IMG/VR virus record: IMGVR_UViG_3300034357_000765
Strand: one strand, 5' to 3'
DNA: 57,327 nucleotides
From: a virus
Taxonomy: Duplodnaviria; Heunggongvirae; Uroviricota; Caudoviricetes
A program made the translations under genes and the position numbers. Of this stretch, positions 23,459 through 48,697 are shown one piece after another (within the stretch, counting starts at the first letter, position 1; every line of letters starts with the position of its first letter). The notes under the pieces were generated by a model, which was not told the DNA's origin, searched no databases, and saw only the letters and a program-made list of their open reading frames with translations.

Positions 23459-23482
23459 CTTTATATTTATTTGTTTGTTTGA

Positions 23483-23490: not shown

Positions 23491-23543
23491 CGGAGTTTTT
23501 TAACAAAATACAAAACATTATTATTATTATTAATATAAAATTT

Positions 23544-25492: not shown

Positions 25493-25520
25493 AAAAGCCA
25501 CTCGTTTGAGTGGCTTTTTT
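25493..25520. terminator. bidirectional intrinsic terminator (GCCACTC family, copy 2)
   Basis: AAAAGCCACTC-gttt-GAGTGGCTTTT between convergent genes. Confidence 0.85.
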
Positions 25521-32598: not shown

Positions 32599-32599
32599 A

Positions 32600-33070: not shown

Positions 33071-33079
33071 ATTATTTAT

Positions 33080-33454: not shown

Positions 33455-33822
33455 TACTTTAATAGAGTTTTTAATCTCCAGTCTCTTACTATGATTTTAA
33501 AGTCTTCGAAGCTAGAAGACTGTGACATCAAGTCTACCTTTTCGTTTATCTCTTCGATAAGTTCTTTAAGTTCCTCACTTCTTTCTTTTATTCTACCATC
33601 ATAGACACATTCTATCTTTGTATCTCCTTGTTGACGAGGAACAATCCAGGTAACGACGTTCGAATAACTCCATTGATCTTTGACCTGACTGATTACTTCA
33701 TTCGCCCTTTGTGGTGACAGTCCGTTCACGTTTATGTAGTAGACAAAGATTGGATTGTCCAGGTCTATTTCCACCTGTGGTTCTTTTATTCCATAATTTA
33801 CATTCATGTATGTTATATACAC
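33454..33822 (-). CDS. hypothetical protein with C-terminal RDxKL tag, 122 aa
   Basis: Ends RDWRLKTLLK. Confidence 0.7.
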   Translation of the reverse strand: MYITYMNVNYGIKEPQVEIDLDNPIFVYYINVNGLSPQRANEVISQVKDQWSYSNVVTWIVPRQQGDTKIECVYDGRIKERSEELKELIEEINEKVDLMSQSSSFEDFKIIVRDWRLKTLLK

Positions 33823-33827
33823 AAAAG

Positions 33828-34262
33828 CTACATATGTTTTCTTATATCTATATGAGAAATCTTCTCAAAGTCTTCTGAAGACTTGTATAATAAGAATGGT
33901 GTAGTAAAATATTTTGAATAAACTTCAGTATCATCAATATGTAAATCAATCTCATTTGACTTACAATATCCTGCCTTTATAGTGTCCCAAAGGTCGTAGT
34001 CAAACTTCTCTTGAATAGTTCCATCAGGAAACTGAATAGTTCCGATACTGTCTATTCCAGAGTCGACAAGATAGTCGTACACTGAAAAGTGAGAAGTCCA
34101 CTGAATACCATAATCTTTAAGCTGATTTTCGAGTTCTGTTGTCCACGAACCACCGGTGATGATATGTACTTCTCCATTGTTGGAAATAACAGATTGACTC
34201 ATAAACGCAAAAGATTTTGGGTTTGAGTCAATAACACCGTGTATGTCTAGTCCTAGTTTCAT
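33828..34262 (-). CDS. HAD-superfamily phosphatase-like protein, 144 aa
   Basis: LGLDIHGVID (motif I variant), IITG, HIDD. Confidence 0.65.
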   Translation of the reverse strand: MKLGLDIHGVIDSNPKSFAFMSQSVISNNGEVHIITGGSWTTELENQLKDYGIQWTSHFSVYDYLVDSGIDSIGTIQFPDGTIQEKFDYDLWDTIKAGYCKSNEIDLHIDDTEVYSKYFTTPFLLYKSSEDFEKISHIDIRKHM

Positions 34263-34630
34263 TCGTTGAATAAATCATTTAATTTAGAATCTCTTTGCAT
34301 AGACTTCTTTAGTTCCTCTGGTACATTACCGACGAAGCCATCCCAGCCCCTTATCTGATGGTTTGCAGATTTTGCTATGATTATCTTTTTTATATCAGAT
34401 TTGATTTCACTAATATTCAATTTAGTATCAACTAACTCAGGACTTTCATTTATTAAATCATAACGAATGTTTTCCCACTTCCACCAAAGAAACTTTCTTT
34501 TAATAACTACCTTTTTATAGACATAAAGATCATGATAGTCATTACTACTATCTCTATCTTCTATCTGAAAGTAGTATGTATTTCCGTCTTCAAAAATAAA
34601 CGGAGTCATTTTTATAACAATATCACTCAT
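34259..34630 (-). CDS. hypothetical protein with C-terminal RDxKL tag, 123 aa
   Basis: Ends RDSKLNDLFNE. Confidence 0.7.
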   Translation of the reverse strand: MSDIVIKMTPFIFEDGNTYYFQIEDRDSSNDYHDLYVYKKVVIKRKFLWWKWENIRYDLINESPELVDTKLNISEIKSDIKKIIIAKSANHQIRGWDGFVGNVPEELKKSMQRDSKLNDLFNE

Positions 34631-34634
34631 ATAA

Positions 34635-34642
34635 CAAATATA
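34635..34642 (-). promoter_or_regulatory. Bacteroidota-type promoter -7 box TATATTTG
   Basis: TTTG 19 nt upstream (34662-34665). Confidence 0.65.
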
Positions 34643-34649
34643 TCAAAAA

Positions 34650-34946
34650 TTATTCATTGTTCAAAAGTCTTTCAAGCCTTTCGTCTCTTATCAGTGATTT
34701 AACCTCGACAAGATTGCAGACTTCCTTCATTATCTTTTTTGGTAGTGTCTTTTGAAGATTCTTACCAAAGAGTTGTTCTCTCAGATCCATCCTTATACAG
34801 TTTGCATAAGGAAACCTAAGACGTATGTACTCATACTCCATATCGCTTGCGATTGGAATAACTTTATACGAATATTTATTTATTAGTTTAGATGTTTGAT
34901 GTGCGTGAATCGCAAGGCTTTTATATTTTATGAAGTAGTCACTCAT
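34650..34946 (-). CDS. hypothetical protein with C-terminal RDxKL tag, 98 aa
   Basis: Ends RDERLERLLNNE. Confidence 0.7.
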   Translation of the reverse strand: MSDYFIKYKSLAIHAHQTSKLINKYSYKVIPIASDMEYEYIRLRFPYANCIRMDLREQLFGKNLQKTLPKKIMKEVCNLVEVKSLIRDERLERLLNNE

Positions 34947-35508
34947 GTCGTGCTATTTTAATGTTGTACAAAATTACTAAAAAAGTATGTGCAATCTCTG
35001 CAATCGCCATCCCATGAAACATACTCAAAAGTATTATAGGAAACACGGCCATCGATGTTGATATTATAACCTTTTGTAACCAATCAGAATACTGCATATA
35101 TTTTCGATTCAGATAAGCAAACATAAATATAGTCAGAGGATAGAAGAAGAAATAAAGCCCTGCGGAAACATTGTGTATCAGTCTATAATCTATGTTGAAA
35201 AAACCTACTGCAAAAAGACAAGTCGATAAGAATCCAAATAAAAAATAAAACTTTTTCTTATACTTTATTCTAGTATTGTTCTTTAAATAAAGAAAAGAGT
35301 TCACAAATATCGATACCGCGAAAAGACACACCGCGGAATTCCATATTCTTCCAATCCATCCAGACTTGCCCCAGTTTGAAAGCTGTATCTCACGTATGTC
35401 CAAATTGGCAAACTTCCAACAAACCAAGAATACTGACAAAAATATAAATATGGAAATATAGGTCTGAGACCTTCTCACCATTCTTATCAGACGTTCTCTT
35501 GATAGCAT
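34939..35508 (-). CDS. multi-pass membrane protein (DUF998-like), 189 aa
   Basis: Five to six hydrophobic helices; H-x-x-S-A motif. Confidence 0.6.
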   Translation of the reverse strand: MLSRERLIRMVRRSQTYISIFIFLSVFLVCWKFANLDIREIQLSNWGKSGWIGRIWNSAVCLFAVSIFVNSFLYLKNNTRIKYKKKFYFLFGFLSTCLFAVGFFNIDYRLIHNVSAGLYFFFYPLTIFMFAYLNRKYMQYSDWLQKVIISTSMAVFPIILLSMFHGMAIAEIAHTFLVILYNIKIARHE

Positions 35509-35569
35509 ATCGACTCATATATTTTGAAGGGATTTTCTCCCTTCTCTATATATAAGTTTTTAGAAACAA

Positions 35570-36886
35570 TCATTTCTTAGCATCATATTCAGGATTCATG
35601 TACTTACAACTCAAGTCATTTGTGTACAGAGTTCTTACAACAACACCCTCAATGATTCTACCCTCTGATTTCTCTTTAGCAAAGATACCATCACAGTATT
35701 CACAAAGAGCTTCATAGGTCGCAAACTTAGCGATAAACACCGGAGTGTATTCAATCCCAAGAATCTTAGAAACATCTCTCAAATTGTGAGGAGATGAATA
35801 GTTGATTCTTTTAGAGAATCCTTCAGACAAATCATCAATCCCGAAAAGAACAAGTTTCTGTTTTTCATTTGAATCCGGATTCACTTTGTTTCCAGAACCT
35901 TTCAATCCTTGTCCGATAATCTCTCCACGGAAAGCAAGCTGCAATCCATGCTCTTTACAATAAGCTAAACCATTTTCCAATAGTCCAGAGTTTGTAGCCA
36001 ATTCAATCCAAGAGTCTTTTACTTCTTTAGTGATTGCTTCAAAACCATCCATTTCATCATCTTCTCTGAACTGAGATAAATTATCACAAAACCATCCTTT
36101 AGTCATAGTGTCTTTATCAAAGTATCTATGATAAAGATTTTTATCTTCATCTAAGTATTCAGTAACAAAGGTTTGATCCATTTTCTTTTCTTGAGCTCTG
36201 GAACAAACACCAGATTTGTAGTCTTCACCTTCTAATTTGAAGTAAGTCGTGTGAGAACTACCATCACGTTTGATAGTGATTCCCATTTCCTGACCTTCTG
36301 TTATTATCTTTTTGACGTGGTCTACAATGTTGTTGATGTTTTGTTCATCAGTCTTATACATAAAAGAAGGGAACTCACCAGCGATTAAACCAGAGCCTGC
36401 AGTTTCTGGTTCTTCATACTTAGTGACACCCAACTCTTCTGCTAAGTCTAATTCTCTATATGCTTCAGGAGAAGGCATATCACTATAGAAGCAATAGTTT
36501 TCATCACCTTCAAACAAGAAAGCTTCTACTTCTTCTAAAGGTAGTAAGACACCATTTGAATAAATAGGGTCGTTAGAACCTTCGAAAGAAAAGTTAAACT
36601 TAATCGCACGAATACGATTTTGCTTACCTAATCTAGATCTCTTTGGATCTCCACCAGGTGCAATGAAACTCATAAATAAGTCGTTTTCAGAAAGACAATA
36701 GTCTGGTTGGATATAGATTGCCTTTGAACCTATCTCATATAAGCCTTTCTGTGCAATCACATTAAAACCACATTCACCACCATTATCAAAACTAAACTTA
36801 GCTACTTGAATAGCATTTGCCTCAGCTCCTTCTTTGAAGACTGGAATCAAATTAGTTATCGTTACAATTTCTACTATCTTTACCAT
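35570..36886 (-). CDS. RNA ligase, DRB0094/Rnl5-like, 438 aa
   Basis: N-terminal OB-like module; TIKRDGSS, FRGEIIG, EGVVVR, KYMNPEY. Confidence 0.82.
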   Translation of the reverse strand: MVKIVEIVTITNLIPVFKEGAEANAIQVAKFSFDNGGECGFNVIAQKGLYEIGSKAIYIQPDYCLSENDLFMSFIAPGGDPKRSRLGKQNRIRAIKFNFSFEGSNDPIYSNGVLLPLEEVEAFLFEGDENYCFYSDMPSPEAYRELDLAEELGVTKYEEPETAGSGLIAGEFPSFMYKTDEQNINNIVDHVKKIITEGQEMGITIKRDGSSHTTYFKLEGEDYKSGVCSRAQEKKMDQTFVTEYLDEDKNLYHRYFDKDTMTKGWFCDNLSQFREDDEMDGFEAITKEVKDSWIELATNSGLLENGLAYCKEHGLQLAFRGEIIGQGLKGSGNKVNPDSNEKQKLVLFGIDDLSEGFSKRINYSSPHNLRDVSKILGIEYTPVFIAKFATYEALCEYCDGIFAKEKSEGRIIEGVVVRTLYTNDLSCKYMNPEYDAKK

Positions 36887-36894
36887 TTTTATTT

Positions 36895-37509
36895 TTATTT
36901 AAGAAATGTTTTTTCATAAACATCTCTGATTGCTTTTATTCCATTTGGTTGAATCTCTCTGGTTCCTATACCAGCAAAATCCTGTTCTGTTATCAAAGGT
37001 ACTTCTTTTAATTCTACAAACCTAAGAGAATTGTAAGACCATCTAAACCATTTATCTTTAATCTGATCAAAAACAAAAACATCGTTTTCTTGGTTTATCG
37101 CCATCATTACAGCATATCCAGTACCACCATCAACTACATCATTCTTAGAGTTGTTCTTATATCCTTTAACAGATTTCTCACCTGCTTTGATTATAGTACC
37201 GATAGCAAAAACTTGCTTTGAATATTTAACTTGTGCCCAGTTTCTGGCCAACAAACTCATATACTTATGAATACCAAATCTACCCAAAGTTTTGTTTGCT
37301 TTGGTTATTTGAATAACACCTTCTTCATAATCTGCATCCGAAATCTCTACTTTATTTGGAGATACGTGAGACTTTGTTCTATATGAATAAGCCTTAGTCT
37401 TAACACCAAACTCTTCACCAATTTCATCCCAAACTGTATCAGCACCGGTGGCACCACCGGAATGACAAGTTATTTTAGTAAGATCTATTTTTGTGTTGAA
37501 AATATCCAT
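36895..37509 (-). CDS. SLOG-superfamily (YspA/YpsA-like) protein, 204 aa
   Basis: CHSGGATGAD, LARNWAQV, GGTGYAV. Confidence 0.72.
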   Translation of the reverse strand: MDIFNTKIDLTKITCHSGGATGADTVWDEIGEEFGVKTKAYSYRTKSHVSPNKVEISDADYEEGVIQITKANKTLGRFGIHKYMSLLARNWAQVKYSKQVFAIGTIIKAGEKSVKGYKNNSKNDVVDGGTGYAVMMAINQENDVFVFDQIKDKWFRWSYNSLRFVELKEVPLITEQDFAGIGTREIQPNGIKAIRDVYEKTFLK

Positions 37510-37769
37510 TAGTCTAATATGTTTTTTAATATAATTTCTCTTATTGTTGCGGTATCATTCAAATAAACTTTTATACAGAAAGTACCATTGAACTTATTTA
37601 GTATAGTCGCTTTTTCAAACGACTTCACACTCGCTGGTATACCAATCTTTCTGAGATACTCTGTTGCTCTCGTTTTTGCAAACACAGTATCAAAACCAAC
37701 AACCTTATCATCTATAACATCTTTCAGTATAAGTTTTTTGTTGGTATCATAAAAGTAAATGTCAGTCAT
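37509..37769 (-). CDS. hypothetical protein with C-terminal RExxL tag, 86 aa
   Basis: Ends REIILKNILD. Confidence 0.65.
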   Translation of the reverse strand: MTDIYFYDTNKKLILKDVIDDKVVGFDTVFAKTRATEYLRKIGIPASVKSFEKATILNKFNGTFCIKVYLNDTATIREIILKNILD

Positions 37770-38640
37770 TCAATTCTAATTTTAAGTTGTCTGTGCTCCA
37801 GATTGCAAGCTCGCCATCCATTCGGAAATACAAGTCTCTGATGTCATATGGCTCGTTGAAGATATATTTTTTCAAATACATAAAAAACTTATGACCATTA
37901 CATCCAACTGGCTCGCTATGTAGTATTTCACCACTATCTTTACAAAGATACTGATTTATTCTGAAGTTTTCAACTTTTTTAATAGTAAATGGTGTTATAG
38001 TAAAATCTTCACCATCCAATCCTTCGATAATCTCTCTAACATCTTCTATCTTTTCAAAAGAGTAGATAATCTCGTCGTGTTTAATACACTCTATTTTAAG
38101 ACCATATTTTGACATAGCGTTTTTGATGTCTTCAATCATCACTCTTTGTGCCTTTATCTGTTTCTTTGGATTTAGATTTCCAAAGATATACTGTCTGAAA
38201 TGTTTTGATTTATGGAATACCTCTGGTACTCCAAACTTATTCAAGAACTCAGAATAGGTTTCACCTAATTCATTTATAAAAGATGGATCGTATTTCTTCA
38301 TTGCTTGCCAGTTCGCCATCTTTAAGTCAATAGAAAGATAGTTCACTCCCTCAGAATATTCGAAGCTCTTGTTAGTCGGATAATCTGGAATAAGATTTTC
38401 GTCTGCCATATCGTTGTATGCACGAGTTCCTTTAACAAATGCAACAATTTCGTCAATCTTAGACATACGATATTCAAACATGTCTCCAATCTCTGACTCT
38501 GCCTTTTCATATAGTGTAATAAGCTCGTCAAGGTTCTTCCATCTATCAATACGTGAGAATTGATTCTTGTAGTATTCGAAGTCGTCAAAACTTGCTATGT
38601 TCAAATCAAACATCTTACAAAAACTCTTTATATCTTTCAT
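37762..38640 (-). CDS. hypothetical protein, possible polymerase-palm-like fold, 292 aa
   Basis: LSIDLKMANW ... SKHFRQYIFG ... IKHDEII; the ORF is solid, the function is speculative. Confidence 0.6.
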   Translation of the reverse strand: MKDIKSFCKMFDLNIASFDDFEYYKNQFSRIDRWKNLDELITLYEKAESEIGDMFEYRMSKIDEIVAFVKGTRAYNDMADENLIPDYPTNKSFEYSEGVNYLSIDLKMANWQAMKKYDPSFINELGETYSEFLNKFGVPEVFHKSKHFRQYIFGNLNPKKQIKAQRVMIEDIKNAMSKYGLKIECIKHDEIIYSFEKIEDVREIIEGLDGEDFTITPFTIKKVENFRINQYLCKDSGEILHSEPVGCNGHKFFMYLKKYIFNEPYDIRDLYFRMDGELAIWSTDNLKLELND

Positions 38641-38645
38641 CTTTA

Positions 38646-39071
38646 TTATTTTAAAATTTCATCAATCTTTCTATCTCTATCCAACACTTTGTTTCTTTTT
38701 AAGAAACTTTCCCAATGAACAGCAAGTCTTTCTTTTTTCTGTAGCTCGTCTCGTCTCTTACAGAATCTCTTTACATATTGAAGTAGAAAATAGAATCTTA
38801 TTTTAGACAGACCAATATCCTTTAGTTCGTATTTACATTCGTCTCTACCATCACAAAGATGTATATAGTATGGTCTATTATCATCAGCATCATTATTCCT
38901 TTTAATCTCTTTAAGAATTTTTAGATACTCTGATTTGAATCCTTTTTGGTCAGGTCCATAGCTAGGTTGAATCTTTGTTTTTACCCAATCCGCACTTTGG
39001 TTTTTCATTTCTCTTACGATGAATCTTTTCAGCTGAGCCAGTGATTTTTCCGTTTCTATTTCTTCTCTCAT
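38646..39071 (-). CDS. hypothetical protein with C-terminal RDxKI tag, 141 aa
   Basis: Ends RDRKIDEILK. Confidence 0.7.
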   Translation of the reverse strand: MREEIETEKSLAQLKRFIVREMKNQSADWVKTKIQPSYGPDQKGFKSEYLKILKEIKRNNDADDNRPYYIHLCDGRDECKYELKDIGLSKIRFYFLLQYVKRFCKRRDELQKKERLAVHWESFLKRNKVLDRDRKIDEILK

Positions 39072-39508
39072 AATATTTTTTTTAGTTTAAAGTCTCTTAC
39101 AATGGTCGTTGGTTCATCCTTCATTCTACCCATATCCTCCATCAATCTTCGATTCATTTCGTTTATCAAGATTACGTCTTTCAACTTCTCCTTCGACAGC
39201 ATCAGAAATGACTTTGGATCACCAACATCTCTTGGGTTTCTCTTCGTGCTTGTTCCAGGTATGTTCATATAATAGTTCTGCTTTGGAAGCGTCCATGTAA
39301 TCTGCCACACATCTTCTACTATCGTAGTTCCTATGATGTAGTTGTCTATCACTAACATAGACATATGATTATTCAACTTCTCTGAATAACATTTTACAAA
39401 TATTCTTTTCAGTTTATGTTCATACTTTACATAGTCTAAATCACAAATCTTGTATTCCTCTTCGAAGAACACTTCTTCAAGCAATGATTTTATTTCATCT
39501 GCGTTCAT
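39068..39508 (-). CDS. hypothetical protein with C-terminal RDxKL tag, 146 aa
   Basis: Ends RDFKLKKIL; ATGA overlaps. Confidence 0.7.
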   Translation of the reverse strand: MNADEIKSLLEEVFFEEEYKICDLDYVKYEHKLKRIFVKCYSEKLNNHMSMLVIDNYIIGTTIVEDVWQITWTLPKQNYYMNIPGTSTKRNPRDVGDPKSFLMLSKEKLKDVILINEMNRRLMEDMGRMKDEPTTIVRDFKLKKIL

Positions 39509-39783
39509 AGTCCTATATTTTTTAACTTAGCTTCTCTAAGTAATGGTAGTATTACTTCGTCATAAGAATAGTCTTCGCCTTCTTTCAGAGTCCAAACAAG
39601 TTCAGATAGTTCCTTTTTTATAATAGAGTGTGTTTTGTCAAATTCCAAACGAGTTGAGAACATTCTCTTTTCAAGACGGAAGAAAGTCGGAGGTGTCAGT
39701 CTTCCTTTCATCACACATTTTATAAGTTCGTCTTTTAAGCAAAGATAATACTTTCCACCATCTTTAATCAAAAAAAAATTCAT
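39505..39783 (-). CDS. hypothetical protein with C-terminal RExKL tag, 92 aa
   Basis: Ends REAKLKNIGL. Confidence 0.7.
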   Translation of the reverse strand: MNFFLIKDGGKYYLCLKDELIKCVMKGRLTPPTFFRLEKRMFSTRLEFDKTHSIIKKELSELVWTLKEGEDYSYDEVILPLLREAKLKNIGL

Positions 39784-40157
39784 ATACCCAGTTTTTTCAA
39801 CTTACTTTCTCTATATTTTATCCTGTCTGGTTTGTATTCATCAGCGATATGTTCAAACCATTCTTTCCAAGTATCGAAGAACTCAAAGTTAGACCACATA
39901 CTCATTCGATCTTTCTCTTCCATCATCTGCTCTTGATTATAGTATGATGTCTCTAATCTCTGCTTGTCGTCGAAACTTAGACACAACCACCAATCCTTTT
40001 CTACTTTTTTAGAAAGATACTTTGAATAGAAAAGAGAAAGACGATGTTCTTGCTCTCTTCTTACCTGTCTATCAGACTTTGAAGAAGAGTAATATCCAAC
40101 CTCACCATCTCTCTGACGATCCTGGAACTTCGAAAAGTTGTTGTCTTTATATTTCAT
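39780..40157 (-). CDS. hypothetical protein with C-terminal RExKL tag, 125 aa
   Basis: Ends RESKLKKLGI. Confidence 0.7.
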   Translation of the reverse strand: MKYKDNNFSKFQDRQRDGEVGYYSSSKSDRQVRREQEHRLSLFYSKYLSKKVEKDWWLCLSFDDKQRLETSYYNQEQMMEEKDRMSMWSNFEFFDTWKEWFEHIADEYKPDRIKYRESKLKKLGI

Positions 40158-40513
40158 ATTCCTAATGATTTTAATCTTTCGTCTCTTCTGTATATCTCAT
40201 AGTTTTCATCGTCTGTTATGAAGTGTCTTTCTAATTCATCCAATGTCATATAGACCCATCTGGTTCTATCCTCATATTTTCGTTTCCATGAATCTTTAAT
40301 AGGATTGTTGTTTTCATCAAAGCAACCAACCCAATCATCTTCTAAACACAATCCCCAACCTTTCTTATCAGTCGCTGCGTTGTATTCTAGATTACCTTGT
40401 CCTTTTACTTTATATGTAGAGCCAACACGAAGTCCTTCGATTGGTTCGATACAAACAACTGCCATACAATCCCATCTTTCTGTCATATCTTTATTTTTCT
40501 CCGTGATGATCAA
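40154..40513 (-). CDS. hypothetical protein with C-terminal RDxRL tag, 119 aa
   Basis: Ends RDERLKSLGI. Confidence 0.7.
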   Translation of the reverse strand: MIITEKNKDMTERWDCMAVVCIEPIEGLRVGSTYKVKGQGNLEYNAATDKKGWGLCLEDDWVGCFDENNNPIKDSWKRKYEDRTRWVYMTLDELERHFITDDENYEIYRRDERLKSLGI

Positions 40514-41099
40514 CTACTCCTACTTTCTTTTTCTTCATTTCTGCTTTCACCTGCTCGTATGAGATTGGTGTGTAGTCTATACAAGGACATCCAACATCCA
40601 TTACTTTTCTTTTGTAGTACTCTTGTTGAGTAGCCATTAAAGATCCGTGAGTGTGTCCGTGAAGATGCCAAGATCCATAGTGGCTTCTGTTCCAAGAAAA
40701 GATTGGATAATGACTCATTATGATTTGCTGGTATCCGTTGCAACCTCTCAATCCTTCGTTGTCTTCATCTTTTACCCAGATTTCAGTTCCGTATTCGTGG
40801 ACTCCATCCATTCTATCAACTGCAATGATGTCTTTCATCTTATCATGGTTTCCCATAATATGTATAATCTTTCCTTTCAGAGAGTGTACAAACCATTTGG
40901 TCCCATCACTTCTTCCAAAAGAAAGGTCTCCTAAGTTGTAGACGATGTCGTTTTCCCCAACAACGTTGTTCCACCTTTTAATCATTTCAACGTGCATTTC
41001 TTCAACATCCACAAATGGTCTGTTGTCGAATTTTATCACGTTCTTATGAAAGAGGTGTAAATCACTTATGAAGAATATGTTTTGTTTTTCGTATTTCAT
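40491..41099 (-). CDS. calcineurin-like metallophosphoesterase, 202 aa
   Basis: SDLH, LGD, GNHD, SHYP, HGHTH. Confidence 0.9.
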   Translation of the reverse strand: MKYEKQNIFFISDLHLFHKNVIKFDNRPFVDVEEMHVEMIKRWNNVVGENDIVYNLGDLSFGRSDGTKWFVHSLKGKIIHIMGNHDKMKDIIAVDRMDGVHEYGTEIWVKDEDNEGLRGCNGYQQIIMSHYPIFSWNRSHYGSWHLHGHTHGSLMATQQEYYKRKVMDVGCPCIDYTPISYEQVKAEMKKKKVGVVDHHGEK

Positions 41100-41371
41100 T
41101 TTCTTTTTAATCTTTTTATTTTTTCTTTTATTATTGACTCGACTATACTTTGTCCGTATGTGTCACATATATCTTTACCATTCTTATCATAGAACTGAAA
41201 GCACTCTAAATCTCCGTTTTTTTCACAGAATATTTGACCTACTATCTTTTCACCGTTTATTGTCAATGTTCCTGTATAACAAACTTCTTCATCAGTTCTT
41301 TCGATAGTCTTCAATCTAAAGATTGTGGACTCTATTTTGTTGAACTCGTCGAATCTAAATATTCTAGTCAT
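41096..41371 (-). CDS. hypothetical protein, 91 aa
   Basis: Start moved to ATG 41371 (MTRIFRFDEF), downstream of the promoter. Confidence 0.6.
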   Translation of the reverse strand: MTRIFRFDEFNKIESTIFRLKTIERTDEEVCYTGTLTINGEKIVGQIFCEKNGDLECFQFYDKNGKDICDTYGQSIVESIIKEKIKRLKRK

Positions 41372-41385
41372 GCTTTTATTTTTTA

Positions 41386-41393
41386 CAAATATA
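41386..41393 (-). promoter_or_regulatory. Bacteroidota-type promoter -7 box TATATTTG
   Basis: TTTG 20 nt upstream (41414-41417); heads the leftward accessory operon. Confidence 0.65.
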
Positions 41394-41441
41394 CGAAACA
41401 CAACTGACACCGACAAATATATAAACAAAAAAAAGTATTTA

Positions 41442-42311
41442 ATGAAATTCTCTAAAAACGTCGGACAGACACCGCTGGTAAAAATATCAGAAAGAATATT
41501 TGCAAAATTCGAAGGACACAACCCAAGCGGATCTTTAAAAGACAGAATGGCAGTCTATATAATAGATGATGCCGAAAAACAAGGACTTATAAAGAAAGGA
41601 GATACATTGATAGAAGCCACTTCGGGAAACTCTGGAATAGCATTTGCTATGCTTGGTGCAGAAAGAGGTTACAAAGTAATCATAGTCATGCCAAAGAACA
41701 TGAGTGAAGAAAGAAAAAAGATACTAAAGATATACGGAGCAGAACTTATTGAAGTAGAAGATGGAAGATTTGATGATGCAATTGCTTTAAGAGATAAAAT
41801 GGCCGAAGAGAATGGTTATTTCAATCCTAGACAATTTTCAAACCCACTAAACGCGAAAGCACACTACGAAACAACAGCACCAGAAATACTACATCAACAT
41901 ACAAACAGAATTGCCGCGTTTGTTTCAGGAACAGGAACCGGCGGCACTTTAATGGGAACTTCAATGCTACTAAAGATGCATCATCCTTTTATGAAAACGG
42001 TTGCTGTAGAACCTGCAGAATCTCCGGTAATGAGTGGTGGTAAACCAGGTCTTCATGGAATACAAGGGATTGGTGATGGTAGTAAGTTTTTAGTAGATTT
42101 GAATCTGGTAGATGACATAATGGTTATTTCAACACAGGATGCAATAGATAGAGCAAAAAGACTTGCTAGTGAGAATGGTTTATTTGTGGGAATCAGCTCG
42201 GGTGCAAATATATTGGCAGCTGAAAGACTTTTAGAAAAATATCCTGAAATGGAAGGAGATGTGATAACAATACTATGTGATAGAGGCGAGAGATATTTAT
42301 CGGTTTTATAA
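41442..42311 (+). CDS. cysK: cysteine synthase (PLP-dependent, CysK/CysM family), 289 aa
   Basis: GQTPLV, KFEGHNPSGSLKDR, EATSGNSG, GTGTGGT, IQGIG, GISSGAN, DRGERYLS; start moved to ATG 41442. Confidence 0.92.
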   Translation: MKFSKNVGQTPLVKISERIFAKFEGHNPSGSLKDRMAVYIIDDAEKQGLIKKGDTLIEATSGNSGIAFAMLGAERGYKVIIVMPKNMSEERKKILKIYGAELIEVEDGRFDDAIALRDKMAEENGYFNPRQFSNPLNAKAHYETTAPEILHQHTNRIAAFVSGTGTGGTLMGTSMLLKMHHPFMKTVAVEPAESPVMSGGKPGLHGIQGIGDGSKFLVDLNLVDDIMVISTQDAIDRAKRLASENGLFVGISSGANILAAERLLEKYPEMEGDVITILCDRGERYLSVL

Positions 42312-42312
42312 A

Positions 42313-42322
42313 TTAATATATA
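42313..42322 (+). promoter_or_regulatory. phage-type promoter motif TTAATATATA
   Basis: Heads the five-gene MKxLKxF cluster. Confidence 0.6.
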
Positions 42323-42351
42323 GTATATAAGAAAAAAAACAAAAAAGAAAT

Positions 42352-43101
42352 ATGAGAAATCTTAAAAAATTCGAAAACTTTGATGGCCTTGCTGCTGATG
42401 AAGAAATGGATCAAATGAACAACGACCAAATCTATGCAGATAGAGATGCCCAAGACGAACATGATACACATGATGCTCAATATTCTCAAAATGACGAAGA
42501 ACCAGTAGACGTTTTAGCTAGATTCGAAGAAGAATTTGGTGATAATGAACCATCTAACCAAGAAGTTATGGAATTCTATCACAAACTTAGATCAGAAGGT
42601 GTTGATGGTATAGAAATATTTGACACACTTTTAAGTAATAATAAAATAGGTGAAGGTGATGATGAGAACTACTCTGATGATGATGATAACTACGATCCAG
42701 AGCACGACGAAGATTTCGGTGCAATGAGAGCTGACGGTTCTGATGACTTAGGTTATGATGATGAAGAAGAAGGTCAAGAAGATCAACACTTCGAAGGATT
42801 GAAAAAGTTCTTTGAATTTAATGATATTCAAGAAGACGAAGAAGGATTTGACGAATTTGGTAATTATGATGGCTTAGACAAGAATCAGAGGAAAAAAAGA
42901 ATGCAAGAAGACGAAGAAGAAAGACAAGTTCAAGTGGACGAAGAAGGATTTGACGAATTTGGTAATTATATCGGATTTTCAGATAGTAACTATGATAAAA
43001 TTAACATCAACCCCAACATTGTACGTAAAGGAAAAGAAGGTCAAGAAGATGCTCAACAATACGAAAGACGTTCTTTAAAAAGATTCAACAACTTCAAATA
43101 A
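42352..43101 (+). CDS. very acidic, probably disordered protein with three LKxF motifs, 249 aa
   Basis: MRNLKKFENF, EGLKKFFEF, RSLKRFNNFK; D/E-rich. Confidence 0.72.
   Translation: MRNLKKFENFDGLAADEEMDQMNNDQIYADRDAQDEHDTHDAQYSQNDEEPVDVLARFEEEFGDNEPSNQEVMEFYHKLRSEGVDGIEIFDTLLSNNKIGEGDDENYSDDDDNYDPEHDEDFGAMRADGSDDLGYDDEEEGQEDQHFEGLKKFFEFNDIQEDEEGFDEFGNYDGLDKNQRKKRMQEDEEERQVQVDEEGFDEFGNYIGFSDSNYDKININPNIVRKGKEGQEDAQQYERRSLKRFNNFK
42835..42969. repeat. exact 33-nt intragenic direct repeat (42835-42867 and 42937-42969)
   Basis: gacgaagaaggatttgacgaatttggtaattat (DEEGFDEFGNY) twice. Confidence 0.9.
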
Positions 43102-43421
43102 TGAAATACTTAAAGAGATTCAACGAAGAGTTTGGTAAAAACGAAATAGTTTTCATTAGTCAGAGAAATCCAAGACTTTTGATAACCGTTTCTATTTCCC
43201 CTGATAGAAGAATCTCGAATATAGATAACAAGACGGGAATAAGATTTCCGTTTTCTGTCGGTCAACCAATCAACAGAACTATGGAAGTCTGGGCAAGCAA
43301 CAACAATTTTTTGATGGACGGAAAAGACGTAAGTCCTGAAAAGAAAGTTTTTGGTGTAAGAGCATCAGACGTACCACAGGGACATGAGTGGAGATCAATA
43401 TACCCAAACAAATTTAGATAG
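43101..43421 (+). CDS. hypothetical protein, MKYLKRFNEE N-terminus, 106 aa
   Basis: Stop/start overlap with the previous gene. Confidence 0.72.
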   Translation: MKYLKRFNEEFGKNEIVFISQRNPRLLITVSISPDRRISNIDNKTGIRFPFSVGQPINRTMEVWASNNNFLMDGKDVSPEKKVFGVRASDVPQGHEWRSIYPNKFR

Positions 43422-43422
43422 T

Positions 43423-43773
43423 ATGAAACACTTAAAAAGATTTAACGAAAACAGCCACGACTGGAGAGCCAACGCTTTCCCGGGTGCAACAGAAGAGGAA
43501 ATCGAAGCAGAAATCCAAAAGATAGAAGCAGAAAGAAAAGCAAAAAATCCTCAATCAACTCAACCTACTATTACACCTAAAGCAGTTCCTGCTAAAAAAA
43601 TGACAGAAGAGGAAGAGGAAAACTATTACCGTAGCACAGGATGGGCAACTGGTGATTATGGCCAATACAGAAACCAAAGCACAGATTCTAAAAAAGAAGA
43701 AGAAAAAGAAGTTGAAGAAGAAAAGCCAACACTTGGATCTAAAATAAAAAGTTTTTTCGGATTTAACAAATAA
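43423..43773 (+). CDS. hypothetical protein, MKHLKRFNEN N-terminus, 116 aa
   Basis: Start moved to ATG 43423. Confidence 0.72.
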   Translation: MKHLKRFNENSHDWRANAFPGATEEEIEAEIQKIEAERKAKNPQSTQPTITPKAVPAKKMTEEEEENYYRSTGWATGDYGQYRNQSTDSKKEEEKEVEEEKPTLGSKIKSFFGFNK

Positions 43774-43782
43774 TAAAAGAGA

Positions 43783-44238
43783 ATGAAATACTTAGAGTCA
43801 TACAAAAACTTCCCAAAGAAGTTCGCACACAAATGGAACAGTGAAACACCTGTAGAGATAATCCTACCTAACTACCTTGATGAAGAAAAGGAGAAGGAAA
43901 GAATGCAAAAAGAATGGGAAGAAGCAAACGAGGAAGGTGAGGAAGGCGAAGAAGAAGTATCCGAAAAGAAAATGAATGAATCTGCCGAAATTATGTTAGG
44001 TGATAACAAAATTCATGAAGTCAAAGAAGGAGATCAATTAAGATTCATGGAACACTATAAGAACCATCTTATTAAGAAATATTCACCATCTTTTACAGAT
44101 GAAATAAACCTAGACGAACCGGTAACTTTTATAAGGGTTGAATCTTCTAACTTAATCCGACCAAATTTAATAGTTCGCACCAAAGAAGGTGTTGACTGGG
44201 TATTCGGACCAGAGGCATTCGTATTGGATAGATTGTAA
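43783..44238 (+). CDS. hypothetical protein, MKYLESYKNF N-terminus, 151 aa
   Basis: In operon; Glu-rich middle. Confidence 0.7.
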   Translation: MKYLESYKNFPKKFAHKWNSETPVEIILPNYLDEEKEKERMQKEWEEANEEGEEGEEEVSEKKMNESAEIMLGDNKIHEVKEGDQLRFMEHYKNHLIKKYSPSFTDEINLDEPVTFIRVESSNLIRPNLIVRTKEGVDWVFGPEAFVLDRL

Positions 44239-44252
44239 AAAATATAAAGAGA

Positions 44253-44699
44253 ATGAGGCATCTGAAGAGGTTTAACGAAAGCATAGAAGAAGGTTTAGAT
44301 ATCGAGTATATCAAATTCTGTTTTATCGACATGGTCGAAGAGAAGAAAGATGGCGAAGAACTTGGTGAGATATCATATTGGAATAAAGTATCAGATATTG
44401 GTGCAAAGAAACAGATAGAAGACAGAGACGCCACTTCCAAAAATGTTACCAACGTAATCATATTTGTTATCTGTCCTCAGCTGAATATCGAGCATACACC
44501 AGACGGATTCAAAGGAAGCATATCAGAATTTACAGAATACAACAAAGCATTTGCAGCTTTTTTAGATGAACTTGAAGCAAATATGGAAAAGCTCAAAGAA
44601 GAACATCCAGACTATGTAGTAGAAACCACTTTTAACCAGCCTTTAATAGATGGAATAAAAGGTCTCGACTACTTTGTAATCGAAGTGAAAAAGTCTTAA
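44253..44699 (+). CDS. hypothetical protein, MRHLKRFNES N-terminus, 148 aa
   Basis: Last gene of the operon. Confidence 0.72.
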   Translation: MRHLKRFNESIEEGLDIEYIKFCFIDMVEEKKDGEELGEISYWNKVSDIGAKKQIEDRDATSKNVTNVIIFVICPQLNIEHTPDGFKGSISEFTEYNKAFAAFLDELEANMEKLKEEHPDYVVETTFNQPLIDGIKGLDYFVIEVKKS

Positions 44700-45409
44700 A
44701 TCTTATTCTTCAAGCACTCCCAAAGAATCATATAGATATTGTCTATCTGGTCATACCTTATCTTAACCAAATCAATATAGTTGTCTTCACAATAGTCAGA
44801 CTTTATCTTTTCATCAATCTTTGATTTCTCATAGGTATTCAAGCCACCCAGCTCTTCTATCGACTGAAAATGATAGATACCATCAAACTCTACACAAACT
44901 CTTATAGAAGGAAGATAAAAGTCAAACTCAATCTTATCCAACATATGGTTCTGCTTGAAGTCTATCTTGAACTTTCTAAGAAAGTCCTTTATCTCCCTCT
45001 CGCCTTTGAAGTCGCTTTGATCCAGCAAGTCTCTTATTATGGATTCTTCGTTCTTTCTAAACTCAGGTGCCATACCCTCTAAATGTGAAGAAGGGCGTTG
45101 CTCATACTTTATACCTCTATATAATATCGTTATCGGAGTAAGCATGTTTTTATACTGTACCAAAGAGTAGTCATATTTGTCGCCCCAAACATTTATTGCT
45201 CTTTCAACAAAATCTTCTGTAGACTGACGTGTAGACGACTTCTCTGGACATCGACCCATTAAATGCTTGACAACACTTTGTTGATATTCAACACCATTAT
45301 ATTCTATATCAATCTTATCGGACAATATAACTTTCTCGTTTAAAGTAGGATATGTGTATTTATATCCGTGCCTTTCTCTTGCTTTCTCTAAAAATTCCAT
45401 CTTCTTCAT
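44696..45409 (-). mobile_element. free-standing homing-endonuclease-like gene (DUF723-type repeats + Vsr/DUF559-like nuclease)
   Basis: Two F.EKA...HG.KY.Y-type repeats; FDFYLP....VEFDG..HF...K..YC......L..I.Y nuclease domain. Confidence 0.65.
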
Positions 45410-45513
45410 ATAGTATATATAAAAAATCACACCCTCTTTCGGAACTATTTTAAAAAAACTTGAAAGGGAGGTATAGTTTCTTTATATATAAAGTATAAAA
45501 ATAATTTAAGAAG

Positions 45514-46746
45514 ATGGCAAAAGCAGTAAAAGAAGGAAAGAAATTCGAATTCAGCAAAGTTGGTTCTATATTAGACAACATAGCTAAATCTATTCCAATC
45601 TTAATAGAAAAGGAAATTAAAGAAAAAACATTCATCACAACAGGAGTTTATTTATTAGACGCCGCACTATCAGGAAGATTGCTAGGTGGTGGAGTTGCAT
45701 CAAACAGAATCACGGCATTCGCTGGAGAATCCGGTGCAGGTAAATCGTTCATCGCTTATTCAGTATCAAAGCACGCACAGAGAGCCGGATATTCGGTAAT
45801 CTATATCGATACAGAACAAGCGATTGACTTAGAAGACTTACCAAAGTTTGGAATCGACAACTCTTTGGAAAAGTTCAGATTAATCAGATCTAACAAAGTA
45901 GAAGATGTAAACATGTTATTGACTCAGTTGATAGATGATTTGAAAGAACAAAAGCTTGCAGGATTTGAACTGCCTAAACTAATGATTGTATTAGACTCTT
46001 TAGGTCAAATGGCAAGTAACAAAGAAAAGGCAGATTTATTGAAAGGTGATATCAAACAGGATATGACTAAAGCAAAAGCATTAGGTTCTATGTTCCGTTC
46101 AATCAACACAGACTTAGGATACTTAGATATTCCAATGATTGTATGTAACCACACTTATCTAACAATGGACCTTTTTCCACAAGAGAAATTAAAAGGTGGT
46201 AATGGTTTGTTATACTCTGCATCAGTAATCGGCTTTATGTCTAAATCAAAATTGAAAACAGGTGAAGAAGATGATATGGACTTAGGTCAATCAGGAATCT
46301 CTGTATTGTTCAAGACTGCAAAAAACAGAATGGCCAAACCTAAGAAGATTAGATTTGACATCTCTTTCGCGAATGGTATGAATCCATACACAGGATTGGA
46401 TGCCTTCTGCAGACCAGAGTATATGGATCAGATTGGAATCGCTAAGGGTAAAATGGATGTAAACAAAGCCACTGGTGAAATGACTTTTGTACCTGGAGGA
46501 AACAGATGGTATGTATCACACCTAAACAAATCAGTTACTACAAAACAACTATTCTCACAAGAGGTTTTCACAACAGGCGTCTTAGATAGAATGGCACCGA
46601 TTGTAAACGACTACTTTAGATTCAAGTCATTAGACGAGATCGAAGAGGTAGAAAACGAATTCAACAAGATAGTTGGAGAAGATGATGAAGAAGATGACAC
46701 AAATGGCTTCACAGATGCTACGGACGCAGGAGACCTTTTTGGATAG
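45514..46746 (+). CDS. recA: RecA/UvsX recombinase, 410 aa
   Basis: TTGVYLLD..LSG, AGESGAGKS, IDTEQA, IVLDSLG, NHTY, KGGNG..YSAS. Confidence 0.88.
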   Translation: MAKAVKEGKKFEFSKVGSILDNIAKSIPILIEKEIKEKTFITTGVYLLDAALSGRLLGGGVASNRITAFAGESGAGKSFIAYSVSKHAQRAGYSVIYIDTEQAIDLEDLPKFGIDNSLEKFRLIRSNKVEDVNMLLTQLIDDLKEQKLAGFELPKLMIVLDSLGQMASNKEKADLLKGDIKQDMTKAKALGSMFRSINTDLGYLDIPMIVCNHTYLTMDLFPQEKLKGGNGLLYSASVIGFMSKSKLKTGEEDDMDLGQSGISVLFKTAKNRMAKPKKIRFDISFANGMNPYTGLDAFCRPEYMDQIGIAKGKMDVNKATGEMTFVPGGNRWYVSHLNKSVTTKQLFSQEVFTTGVLDRMAPIVNDYFRFKSLDEIEEVENEFNKIVGEDDEEDDTNGFTDATDAGDLFG

Positions 46747-46801
46747 ATAGTAAGAGAAAGTCGAAGGGTACTTTAACCCTAAAAAATAAAAATGAATAAT
46801 T

Positions 46802-46972
46802 ATGCAAGAAATCTATGAGAACTTGAAAACATTATGGGAGCAATTTGATGCTAATCATAATAAAACGACTAAAAAATCTAACGCTGACGCAAGAAAAGCA
46901 TTAGGAGAGATTAAAAAGTTGGTTACTACTTACAGAGCTGCTTCAGTTGAGTCTGAAAAAGTTGCTAAGTAA
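46802..46972 (+). CDS. Hc1/Bacteroidota histone-H1-like small protein, 56 aa (missing from the ORF track)
   Basis: MQEIYENLKTLWEQFDANHNKTTKKSNADARKALGEIKKLVTTYRAASVESEKVAK; ARKA..EI.K....YR.AS.E pattern. Confidence 0.62.
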   Translation: MQEIYENLKTLWEQFDANHNKTTKKSNADARKALGEIKKLVTTYRAASVESEKVAK

Positions 46973-47000
46973 TAAACTTATTATATAGCTAACTATATAA

Positions 47001-47105
47001 GAGTATGTTTTCCTTGTAGTCATAAAACAAGGTGGTGGAGCCGAAAACAAAGATCTTAATAAAGATTTGGCCCAAACCCTCTCCTTTTAAAGAGAGGGTT
47101 TTTTG
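47001..47105 (+). ncRNA. candidate structured small RNA with its own terminator
   Basis: GC-rich island: CCTTGT/ACAAGG hairpin, TGGT linker, GGAGCC/GGCCC stem, then AAACCCTCTC/GAGAGGGTTT plus T-tract; no plausible ORF. Confidence 0.45.
47074..47104 (+). terminator. intrinsic terminator
   Basis: 10-bp stem followed by a T run. Confidence 0.85.
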
Positions 47106-47124
47106 TTTATTGAAAAATAATATA

Positions 47125-47132
47125 TATCTTTG
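47125..47132 (+). promoter_or_regulatory. Bacteroidota-type promoter -7 box TATCTTTG
   Basis: TTTG 19 nt upstream (47102-47105). Confidence 0.7.
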
Positions 47133-47148
47133 TAAAAGAAATAAAGTA

Positions 47149-47211
47149 ATGAGAGAATTTAATAACAAAATGATTTTGCATGAACAAAACAGTCAACGAC
47201 TGAGTTTATGA
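47149..47211 (+). CDS. putative attenuator leader peptide MREFNNKMILHEQNSQRLSL, 20 aa
   Basis: First ATG after the promoter; stop lies 20 nt before a terminator; 3' end can pair with the terminator 5' arm. Confidence 0.5.
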   Translation: MREFNNKMILHEQNSQRLSL

Positions 47212-47231
47212 TATTGTATTCAACGATATTT

Positions 47232-47262
47232 AAACCCAGTCTTTATTAAGGCTGGGTTTTTT
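47232..47262 (+). terminator. conditional terminator of a putative attenuator
   Basis: AAACCCAGTCT/AGGCTGGGTTT plus T run, 20 nt before the next ATG. Confidence 0.8.
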
Positions 47263-47281
47263 GATTTTAAAAAATAAAGAT

Positions 47282-47449
47282 ATGGAAATGACTATTTACA
47301 AGTATATGAAAGATGGCAAGTTGTACATGTTTCATACCGTCGAAAAAGAGAACGGGAAAAAAGAAATATTGGCGATACCAGTTAGACATGACGGAAAGCC
47401 AATAGTGAACTGTGACATAAAGGATTTTGTGCTGCACTCAATGGATTAA
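47282..47449 (+). CDS. hypothetical protein, 55 aa
   Basis: ATG 47282 preferred to the TTG in the ORF track. Confidence 0.6.
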   Translation: MEMTIYKYMKDGKLYMFHTVEKENGKKEILAIPVRHDGKPIVNCDIKDFVLHSMD

Positions 47450-47466
47450 AAATAAAATAAAAAGAT

Positions 47467-47619
47467 ATGGAATTAAAAGAAAAGATAATATCAAAGGAAG
47501 TGATGAGCGGAAACTTGGAATCAAGTTACGAAATCCTTAGGATAAAGAAAAAGAAGATAAAGAAAAAAGCAAAGAAAAATATTTTTAAATCGCTTAAAAA
47601 ATTGTTAAAGAAGAAATAA
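47467..47619 (+). CDS. Lys-rich basic microprotein, 50 aa (missing from the ORF track)
   Basis: MELKEKIISKEVMSGNLESSYEILRIKKKKIKKKAKKNIFKSLKKLLKKK. Confidence 0.5.
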   Translation: MELKEKIISKEVMSGNLESSYEILRIKKKKIKKKAKKNIFKSLKKLLKKK

Positions 47620-47636
47620 TTTATTATATTTACACT

Positions 47637-48158
47637 ATGAAAGTAATATTTTTGGATAACGATGGAGTAATGTGCTTATCTACAGAGTGGGGCGGTCGCG
47701 ACAAAAAGATTAAGAAATGGAAGCTTTCTAATCCTGGAGATCCTGGATACGTAAACGATCCAAAGATACCGGCACATATAAAAATGGACAACTTTAACTC
47801 AAAGGCAGTTAAAGTCTTAAACGACATATTGACAATAACTGATGCTGAGATTGTAGTATCTTCTGATTGGAAGTTGCATTGTACACTAGAGCAGTTACAG
47901 GATATGTTTATCAAGTACGGAGTTTTAAAAGCACCGATTGGGAGTACACCTAATCACGTTTTAAAGTCTATGGACGAACTTGAAAGCACGAGAGTAGCCG
48001 AAATATCGGAATGGCTTTCGAGTCATCCAGACGTAGAGAAATGGGTAGCCATTGACGATTTGGATCTTAGTGCTTTACAATGTTTCGTTCACACTAAGAG
48101 AATGAAAGAAGGAATCAAACAATCTGGCATAAAAGAGCAGATTTTAAAGTTCTTATGA
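47637..48158 (+). CDS. HAD domain of the Swiss-Army-knife RNA-repair type, 173 aa
   Basis: KVIFLDNDGV, IVVSSDWK, WVAIDD. Confidence 0.8.
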   Translation: MKVIFLDNDGVMCLSTEWGGRDKKIKKWKLSNPGDPGYVNDPKIPAHIKMDNFNSKAVKVLNDILTITDAEIVVSSDWKLHCTLEQLQDMFIKYGVLKAPIGSTPNHVLKSMDELESTRVAEISEWLSSHPDVEKWVAIDDLDLSALQCFVHTKRMKEGIKQSGIKEQILKFL

Positions 48159-48190
48159 TAACATAAGAACTTTTTTCATATATAAAAGAT

Positions 48191-48697
48191 ATGACATTAG
48201 AAGACTATAACAAATGGATTGAGATGCTCAAGACCGTAGAGATACGTAAGGGTAACCATAATCTATTACAAGAAGTCTTCAAGTTCTCACCAGAGAATTT
48301 TTCAAAATCAAAAGGATTAGATACCGAGTCTTTTGTAAAGCAGTTTCAAAAAGAAAGAAAGATAATACATCATCGACTGATTGACTTTAATAAGATACAA
48401 ATATTAAAGAAAAGAAAGTTAAAGATTGAGAAATACACAACTGGTGGAAAAACATATGATGCCAGAATATGTGTTTGTATAAAGAGATTTAAGAATGAAG
48501 AACCTAGAGCAAAGGGTGGATATGACTTCTACGAGACGATACAATACAACTATGTAATCATATATGATTCTTTCTTTGGTAAAGATGATGCCATCATATT
48601 TGATGATAAAGGAGGAAGAGTTTACTCAACTGTGACTGAGTTCAATAAACATTTTATTGATATTAGAGAGGACAAAATAAATAGTATATTGAAATAA
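48191..48697 (+). CDS. hypothetical protein with C-terminal RExKI tag, 168 aa
   Basis: Ends REDKINSILK. Confidence 0.7.
   Translation: MTLEDYNKWIEMLKTVEIRKGNHNLLQEVFKFSPENFSKSKGLDTESFVKQFQKERKIIHHRLIDFNKIQILKKRKLKIEKYTTGGKTYDARICVCIKRFKNEEPRAKGGYDFYETIQYNYVIIYDSFFGKDDAIIFDDKGGRVYSTVTEFNKHFIDIREDKINSILK

Follow-up and report, generated by a model that had tools for sequence, protein, structure and literature searches.

A proposed T4-type capsid-targeting tag at the N-termini of unrelated proteins in a lineage of uncultured huge phages

Five consecutive genes at positions 42352-44699 of an uncultured phage genome fragment raise a simple question: why do proteins with otherwise unrelated sequences begin with nearly the same ten or so residues? 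The fragment, hereafter the window, is a stretch of 57,327 nucleotides from IMG/VR record IMGVR_UViG_3300034357_000765 (Caudoviricetes). A first-pass annotation had likened these N-termini, and others elsewhere in the window, to the capsid targeting sequence (CTS) of phage T4. The comparisons described below suggest that the common N-terminus is probably a T4-type capsid-targeting propeptide, and that this tag probably marks a very large protein cargo. The T4-like reading is well supported comparatively, because of the match to T4, the head genes of the lineage, the repeats in its protease-scaffold protein, and the position and specificity of the tag.

The window corresponds to positions 93368-150251, minus strand, of the 150,251-bp record (G000), which is 61% complete by CheckV, has a GC content of about 33% and gave 202 genes in a crude gene call. 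Its nearest GenBank matches are 630-640 kb 'uncultured phage' records (LR756502, LR745206 and LR756504), and we know of no cultured member of the clade. A syntenic relative, G001, is a 476-kb IMG/VR record that is 97% complete and carries 638 genes. A counterpart in G001, at 22-84% identity, was found for 101 of the 202 G000 proteins, and G001 was taken as a proxy for the part of the genome missing from G000.

A common N-terminus on unrelated proteins

All ten of the N-termini originally quoted were present where they had been placed, and an eleventh tagged gene was identified at 41096-41371. The tagged genes of the window are:

12160-12624, minus strand: 154-residue protein beginning MVKRYLEFIKE
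21958-22218, plus strand: 86-residue protein beginning MKFILEFNSY
25520-27229, minus strand: 569-residue protein beginning MRYLKLYEAF, divergent from the 468-residue gene, with a promoter-like box 4 nucleotides before the ATG
27275-28681, plus strand: 468-residue protein beginning MKIKRWNDFISYIKE, with a promoter-like box 4 nucleotides before the ATG
31037-32194, plus strand: 385-residue protein beginning MRKYNQFILE, of a flavour like the T4 CTS
41096-41371, minus strand: 91-residue protein beginning MTRIFRFDEFN
42352-43101, plus strand: 249-residue protein beginning MRNLKKFENF, no Pfam family
43101-43421, plus strand: 106-residue protein beginning MKYLKRFNEE, start overlapping the preceding stop by 1 nucleotide
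43423-43773, plus strand: 116-residue protein beginning MKHLKRFNEN
43783-44238, plus strand: 151-residue protein beginning MKYLESYKNF, no Pfam family
44253-44699, plus strand: 148-residue protein beginning MRHLKRFNES

The last five had been described as one operon, and they do lie consecutively on the plus strand with gaps of -1, 1, 9 and 14 nucleotides.

The tag, 10-12 residues long, is enriched hundreds-fold at N-termini over internal positions. A strict regular expression matched at residue 2 of 12 of the 202 G000 proteins, compared with 13 matches in about 47,000 internal positions. With a position-specific scoring matrix (PSSM), N-terminal matches were obtained for 12 of the 202 G000 proteins (3-4 internal matches) and for 52 of the 638 G001 proteins (12 internal matches in 136,519 positions). 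A looser definition of the tag gave 20 of 202 in G000 (3 expected) and 69 of 638 in G001 (8.7 expected), and the overall extent is about 10% of genes, about 20 in G000 and about 60 in G001. A degenerate DNA pattern for M-K-[YH]-L-K-R-F-N-E was found at 89 IMG/VR loci, nearly all at the starts of open reading frames (ORFs) with diverse bodies, and many on contigs of 280-600 kb. In genomes from bacteria and archaea, 596 Gb in all, the same pattern matched only four times, about chance level by our own estimate, and the tag is virus-specific.

Two flavours of the tag were distinguished. Flavour A, M-K-[YH]-L-K-x-[FY], covers all five operon genes. Flavour B, [KR]-[YFW]-x-x-F-[ILV]-x-E, covers the genes at 12624, 27275 and 31037, with MRKYNQFILE, MVKRYLEFIKE and KRWNDFISYIKE, the last within the N-terminus of the 468-residue protein, as examples. 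The motif aromatic-x-x-aromatic-[ILV]-x-E stood at the N-termini of 9 G000 proteins (0.4 expected) and 21 G001 proteins (1.2 expected). DNA patterns for the two flavours were counted against reversed controls:

G001: flavour A 53, control 6; flavour B 22, control 9
LR756504: flavour A 51, control 9; flavour B 18, control 5
LR756501: flavour A 12, control 9; flavour B 33, control 7

In LR756500, LR756501 and LR756504 the patterns were counted regardless of position relative to gene starts. These counts show a preferred flavour that appears to differ between members of the clade.

The bodies behind the tag had been called unrelated, and at the sensitivity of BLAST they are: after removal of the first 14 residues, the 69 tagged G001 proteins fell into 67 BLAST clusters. 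Pfam and PHROGs searches with the tagged window proteins returned no families. Known enzymes of the two genomes carry the tag as an N-terminal extension ahead of the Pfam domain, at a distance of 26-70 residues in the 2H phosphoesterase/Acb1-like, GATase, NUDIX, DeoC and CCA/PolyA_pol proteins. Tagged proteins with a Pfam domain include a 2H phosphoesterase/Acb1-like protein and a GATase in G000, and NUDIX, DeoC, HAD-like, CCA/PolyA_pol, OmpA-like and ankyrin proteins in G001. The G000 phosphoesterase, a tagged 176-residue protein (MKIKKYTQFLNE; G000 58172-58702), matched Pfam 2_5_RNA_ligase2 and Acb1, a family that counters the cyclic oligonucleotide-based antiphage signalling system (CBASS), and is a candidate pre-packaged degrader of nucleotide signals.

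Pairwise comparisons of G000 and G001 orthologues found the tag kept. A T4 RNA ligase 1-like enzyme has a tagged extension of about 20 residues (MKLFRYKEFLRE…) in G001 (326882-328225), and its G000 orthologue (36047-37258) has no tag; here a conserved enzyme has naturally gained or lost the tag. Between the CysK-like and UvsX-like genes lie five tagged genes in G000 and, in the syntenic slot of G001, four, with one body domain only in common. The hypervariable internal-protein loci of T-even phages are arranged similarly.

A minority of tagged proteins has a common second short module after the tag. This module, in which a helix with [DE]-x-G-[FYW] at its end precedes a strand, lies 15-50 residues after the tag and was present in 5 of the 69 tagged and 8 of the 569 untagged G001 proteins. 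Its carriers include the window protein at 27275-28681 and the G001 proteins at 249144, 306273, 325704 and 347477.

Likeness to the T4 capsid targeting sequence and to the scaffold repeats

In T4, the CTS is found on IPI, IPII, IPIII and Alt and is removed by the prohead protease gp21 (Mullaney and Black 1996, via PMC9026906 and PMC3012670). Residues 4 and 7 of the CTS direct targeting and residues 8 and 10 processing; when position 10 is Asp, processing is blocked and targeting is not (PMC9026906). The N-termini read from the T4 genome are:

ipII and ipIII: MKTYQEFIAE
gp61.1: MKTFKEFIKE
ipI: MKTFKEF…
Alt: MELITELFDE

Gene 61.1 (AF158101 18966-19130), which encodes a hypothetical protein, has a near-perfect CTS start.

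Flavour B of the huge-phage tag has all four T4 determinants, Y4 and F7 for targeting and I8 and E10 for processing, and the 154-residue window protein has E-F-I-K-E in common with T4 gp61.1. Flavour A resembles the start of T4 IPI, and an aromatic pair is usual in it. In both systems a peptide of about ten residues stands at the extreme N-terminus of otherwise unrelated proteins, with aromatic residues at positions 4 and 7, I or L at position 8 and Glu at position 10, and the tagged genes lie in hypervariable cassette loci. The tagged lineage further resembles T4 in its gp21-family protease and its T4-type portal and capsid proteins. The core analogy of the first-pass annotation was thus borne out on three counts: the CTS determinants are matched by flavour B, relatives in the lineage have T4-type head genes and a gp21-family protease, and the motif is repeated in the scaffold-like domain described below.

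The head module was examined in G001, where genes for a portal protein, a 720-residue head maturation protease (59876-62038) and a major head protein lie in a row. BLASTP matched G001 proteins to T4 gp20 (portal, 2e-22), gp23 (capsid, 5e-6), gp17 (terminase, 3e-43) and gp18 (sheath, 7e-8). The G001 protease belongs to phrog_207, the PHROG of T4 gp21 (1e-31, compared with 8e-76 for T4 gp21); PF03420 gave a sub-threshold match to it, and a phmmer search with it against PDB sequences gave no match. A gp21-family protease was present in G001, in the further genomes G002 and G003, and in the LR7565xx phages. Because Rak2-like phages have two annotated genes, 'prohead core scaffold and protease' and 'scaffolding protein', across the homologous stretch, the 720-residue ORF is best read as a protease-scaffold fusion.

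Residues of about 259-440 of the fusion are made up of tandem 14-residue repeats with the consensus Y-S-E-Y-[IL]-A-E-N-L-D-K-N-I-[AS], each of which contains the tag motif, and a very acidic stretch follows them. There are 11 copies in G001, 11 in G002, 9 in G003, 13 in LR756501 and 11 in LR756504, and the repeats are degenerate in LR756500. Metagenomic homologues of the protease number roughly 1,550, and among 120 close ones the number of copies varied from 8 to 11, always at a spacing of 14 residues. The repeat unit Y-S-E-Y-I-A-E equals the T4 CTS core Y-Q-E-F-I-A-E at five of seven positions. Across the G001 proteome the motif occurred 83 times (27.8 expected), with the excess at the 21 N-termini given above and in the protease, whose 11 copies make it the sole protein with more than three. 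Residues 59-65 of T4 gp23, FGSFLTE, also fit the aromatic-x-x-aromatic-[ILV]-x-E motif, and gp21 cuts gp23 after Glu65.

Conservation and structure prediction were assessed for the 468-residue protein. Its residues K4, F9 and E15 were kept at 99% across 119 orthologues of 46-100% identity. The AlphaFold2 model (predicted local distance difference test score, pLDDT, 86.5) has a tag helix at residues 6-15, a disordered linker at 15-23 and then a confident body, and in this model the architecture is that of a detachable tag: helix, linker, body. Fold searches with the model found no solved relative, the sole match being one uncharacterised phage protein, and Protein Atlas look-ups of the 468- and 569-residue proteins gave no match.

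By analogy with T4, we infer scaffold binding, cleavage, packaging and injection for the tagged proteins. The tag would form a short amphipathic helix in which two aromatic or hydrophobic residues three positions apart, with Lys or Arg before them, attach the protein to the core of scaffolding in the assembling prohead. In this lineage the core would be the C-terminal domain of the gp21-type protease-scaffold fusion, with its 14-residue repeats containing Y-x-x-Y-[ILV]-A-E. In the flavour with [ILV]-x-E, the prohead protease would cut after the Glu, in the way that the scaffold repeats would be cut, and the cut would free the cargo inside the head. The proteins marked by the tag would make up a very large head-internal set with rapid turnover (about 10% of genes), some of it arranged in cassette arrays like that at 42352-44699. 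Some tagged proteins, including RNA-repair enzymes and enzymes that degrade nucleotide signals, are probably delivered with the DNA.

The proposed system would differ from that of T4 in several respects. Tagged genes number about 20 in 150 kb here and about 60 in the 476-kb relative, whereas T4 has ipI, ipII, ipIII and alt plus the CTS-like gp61.1. The huge-phage tags come in two flavours, their cargo includes many enzymes, and the bodies are acidic on average. In the huge phages, scaffold and protease form one fused protein, and the scaffold consists of tandem tag-like repeats. Finally, the T4 CTS was demonstrated by experiment, whereas the huge-phage tags are known from sequence alone.

Evidence against the T4-like reading and alternative explanations

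Several observations weigh against a T4-type propeptide. No portal, capsid or protease gene was found in G000, which is an incomplete record (61%), including by searches with PF03420 and PF07068. A PSSM built from the scaffold repeats alone was too peaked, and tags were not recovered with significant scores. The seven-residue degenerate motif that links repeats and tags was defined from the tags, and the scaffold repeats are one amplified unit, not independent matches; any 14-residue unit has a chance of about 0.3% of holding the motif. Flavour A, including all five operon genes, lacks [ILV]-x-E at a fixed register, so the removal after the motif Glu that had been proposed is uncertain for this flavour; some [LIV]-x-E does occur within residues 6-25 in 62% of tagged versus 30% of untagged proteins. 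The acidity of the tagged bodies contrasts with T4 IPI-III, which were called highly basic in one T4 paper. About 10% of genes, among them those for DeoC, HAD, GATase and NUDIX enzymes, would be cargo under the proposal, far more than in any characterised phage. In addition, the promoter-like box found before many tagged genes also lies upstream of UvsX-like and NrdB-like genes and is therefore not strictly late. For some tagged proteins, the role of an expendable acidic core component may fit better than that of injected cargo; an example is the 249-residue operon protein (net charge -52), to which the acidic gp67 of T4 is comparable.

The box itself bears on the alternatives. Most of the ten quoted genes had been said to follow the motif TTAATATATA, and this was correct in part. 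The box or a near-match lies 4-25 nucleotides upstream of five of the ten, at 4 nucleotides for four of them and at 25 for the gene at 31037. A single TTAATATATA box at 42313-42322 on the plus strand stands 29 nucleotides before 42352, the first gene of the operon, and the four internal operon genes have none. In G001, 35 of the 69 tagged and 121 of the 569 untagged genes were preceded by a box of the TAATATATA type (odds ratio 3.8, p = 5e-7), which is of the same class and also precedes the portal, protease and capsid genes.

Could the motif reflect no more than a constraint on translation initiation or early elongation in genes that are probably leaderless, with no targeting role? The box stands exactly 4 nucleotides before the ATG in 17 genes, many of them tagged, and the N-terminal codons are somewhat A-rich. 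Synonymous codon usage within the tag, however, equals the genome average, and the conserved positions are Lys or Arg, Leu or Ile, and two aromatic or hydrophobic residues with helical spacing. Because synonymous codons in the tag vary freely, selection acts on the protein, and an A-rich initiation bias, which had been named beforehand as a finding that would undo the targeting idea, is very unlikely as a sole cause. Moreover, 9 of the 22 G000 genes with a box 4-6 nucleotides before the ATG are untagged, genes inside operons or with leaders of 20-29 nucleotides retain the tag, and the tag persists through domain shuffling and is added to enzymes as an extension. We consider this explanation very improbable. 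We give equally little credence to the idea that the tag is a relic of common descent and cassette recombination, in which a fast-diverging paralogous family had its 5' ends homogenised. The tandem arrays of tagged genes, the internal and C-terminal tag-like copies in the 249-residue protein, as if small genes had been fused, the subset with a common second module, and the T4 ipII and ipIII tags, which are identical at the DNA level, are all consistent with such a history. Yet the tag heads proteins of clearly independent origin (2H, NUDIX, DeoC, CCA-adding, RNA ligase and GATase), and the 119 orthologues of the 468-residue protein retain their three conserved tag residues. The same residue in two tags was encoded by the same codon 64% of the time, barely above the expected 55%, which argues against homogenisation of the tags at the DNA level.

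The remaining alternatives accept that the tag is a signal and give it another reader. It is unlikely, on balance, that the tag directs sorting or assembly towards some destination besides the capsid, such as a compartment built by the phage, a factory associated with a membrane or a chaperone (phage DnaK/DnaJ), with its CTS likeness a convergence of short amphipathic helices. Such a destination would suit the many tagged proteins that look like ordinary enzymes (DeoC, HAD, GATase, NUDIX, CCA-adding) and the tagging of about 10% of genes; G000 encodes Hsp70-like and DnaJ-like proteins, as judged from their N-terminal sequences only, and a C-terminal motif on another 8-9% of proteins suggests a general sorting logic. 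Against this, the four CTS positions that experiments in T4 showed to matter are all matched by the tag, the motif clusters in the head module's protease-scaffold fusion, and no linear N-terminal signal for import into phage compartments is known to us. A leader for a modifying or degrading enzyme other than the prohead protease (a maturase, a Clp-type protease recognizing an N-terminal degron, or an M20 peptidase) is improbable. G001 does encode ClpP, and M20 peptidase genes adjoin tagged genes in the window and lie in the G001 head module, but the sole enzyme that carries the motif repeatedly in its own polypeptide is the head protease-scaffold. A radical-SAM partner was considered and rejected, being absent from three of the four genomes (G000, G001 and G003), with a single gene in G002.

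Other loading systems also bear comparison with the proposed T4-type propeptide. The phiKZ-like giant phages have gp21-related proteases, phiKZ gp175 and SPN3US gp245 (PMC5694885, PMC10052503). These proteases, like the enzyme expected in the tagged lineage, cut after Glu, and about 50 head-internal proteins, some of them enzymatic, carry propeptides that are thought to target the prohead. The phiKZ-like propeptides differ in that they are mostly at least 100 residues long, have no common short tag and are cut at A/S/G-x-E, and the phages belong to another lineage. Encapsulin cargo-loading peptides and those of bacterial microcompartments are short, terminal, often helical and sufficient to load diverse enzymes into a shell, which in encapsulins has the HK97 fold. 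They differ from the huge-phage tag in that encapsulin peptides are usually C-terminal, and neither kind is cleaved by a protease or related to a scaffold or to DNA packaging.

Should the tag function as it does in T4, its cargo would be the largest and most diverse proposed for any phage, by far. The cargo could be listed from sequence, which would open a route to candidate injected anti-defence and host-takeover proteins in metagenomes, and in Bacteroidota systems such tags could be put to use for packing phage heads with foreign proteins. A concrete, testable mechanism for recognition of the prohead core by the CTS, which to our knowledge is still unclear even for T4, follows from the link to the scaffold repeats. 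A bolder version, which we hold only tentatively and think rather doubtful, is that the tag is a single copy of the 14-residue scaffold repeat: cargo would pass for a scaffold unit, be built into the head together with the protease-scaffold fusion and be freed by the protease that takes the scaffold apart, and about one-tenth of the proteome, pre-made counter-defence enzymes included, would be loaded for delivery with the DNA. Were this true, the counter-defence cargo would include the Acb1-like 2H phosphoesterase, a NUDIX enzyme, the RNA ligase and a CCA-adding enzyme, and sequence alone would suffice to read the injected proteome of thousands of uncultured phages. The T4 CTS itself is textbook knowledge; we found no paper with the motif strings, none linking the CTS to huge phages, and no published description of an expanded tag set in them.

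The operon proteins, a C-terminal motif and neighbouring genes

Within the operon, the 249-residue protein contains two tag-like copies, SLKRFNNFK (about 43072-43098) at its C-terminus and GLKKFFEF internally, and it looks as if it were made of fused small tagged cassettes. The stop codon of its gene overlaps the ATG of the next, which starts MKYLKRFNEE (window 43066-43103). The body of that 106-residue protein corresponds, at 65% identity, to the C-terminal domain of a 267-residue tagged G001 protein. The gene for the 116-residue protein has an in-frame ATG upstream, at 43384, which overlaps the preceding gene and is the less likely start. The first 30 or so residues of the 148-residue protein are near-identical even in its most distant homologue (36% identity); its AlphaFold2 model is of low confidence (pLDDT 58.8), with the tag region below 50 and disordered. 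Outside the operon, the G001 homologue of the 385-residue protein begins MIKKYSDFINE.

A second, C-terminal label on small accessory proteins had also been reported. This motif, R-[DE]-x-[KR]-[LIV]-x-x-[LIVF], was confirmed and lies mostly on small proteins: it ends 16 of the 202 G000 proteins (0.25 expected) and 60 of the 638 G001 proteins (0.54 expected). It is nearly exclusive of the N-terminal tag, with only one protein in G000 and two in G001 carrying both. Genes with this motif lie at 32380-48697 of the window, for example at 33454, 34259, 34650, 38646, 39068, 39505, 39780, 40154 and 48191, and throughout G001. The 'two-label sorting system' suggested for the pair would have a purely descriptive basis, the C-terminal motif and the N-terminal tag themselves.

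No tRNA genes were found in the window. The window or its parent record encodes a T4-type topoisomerase II, a gp32-like single-stranded DNA-binding protein and a UvsX/RecA-like protein. A gene for an M20-family peptidase (22199-23518, minus strand; phrog_4191), whose matches among PDB sequences are to peptidase T/tripeptidase, adjoins the tagged 86-residue gene of the window. A paralogue lies at 64612-65967 of G001, inside the head module and two genes past the capsid gene, and we speculate that the M20 peptidase may degrade released propeptides.

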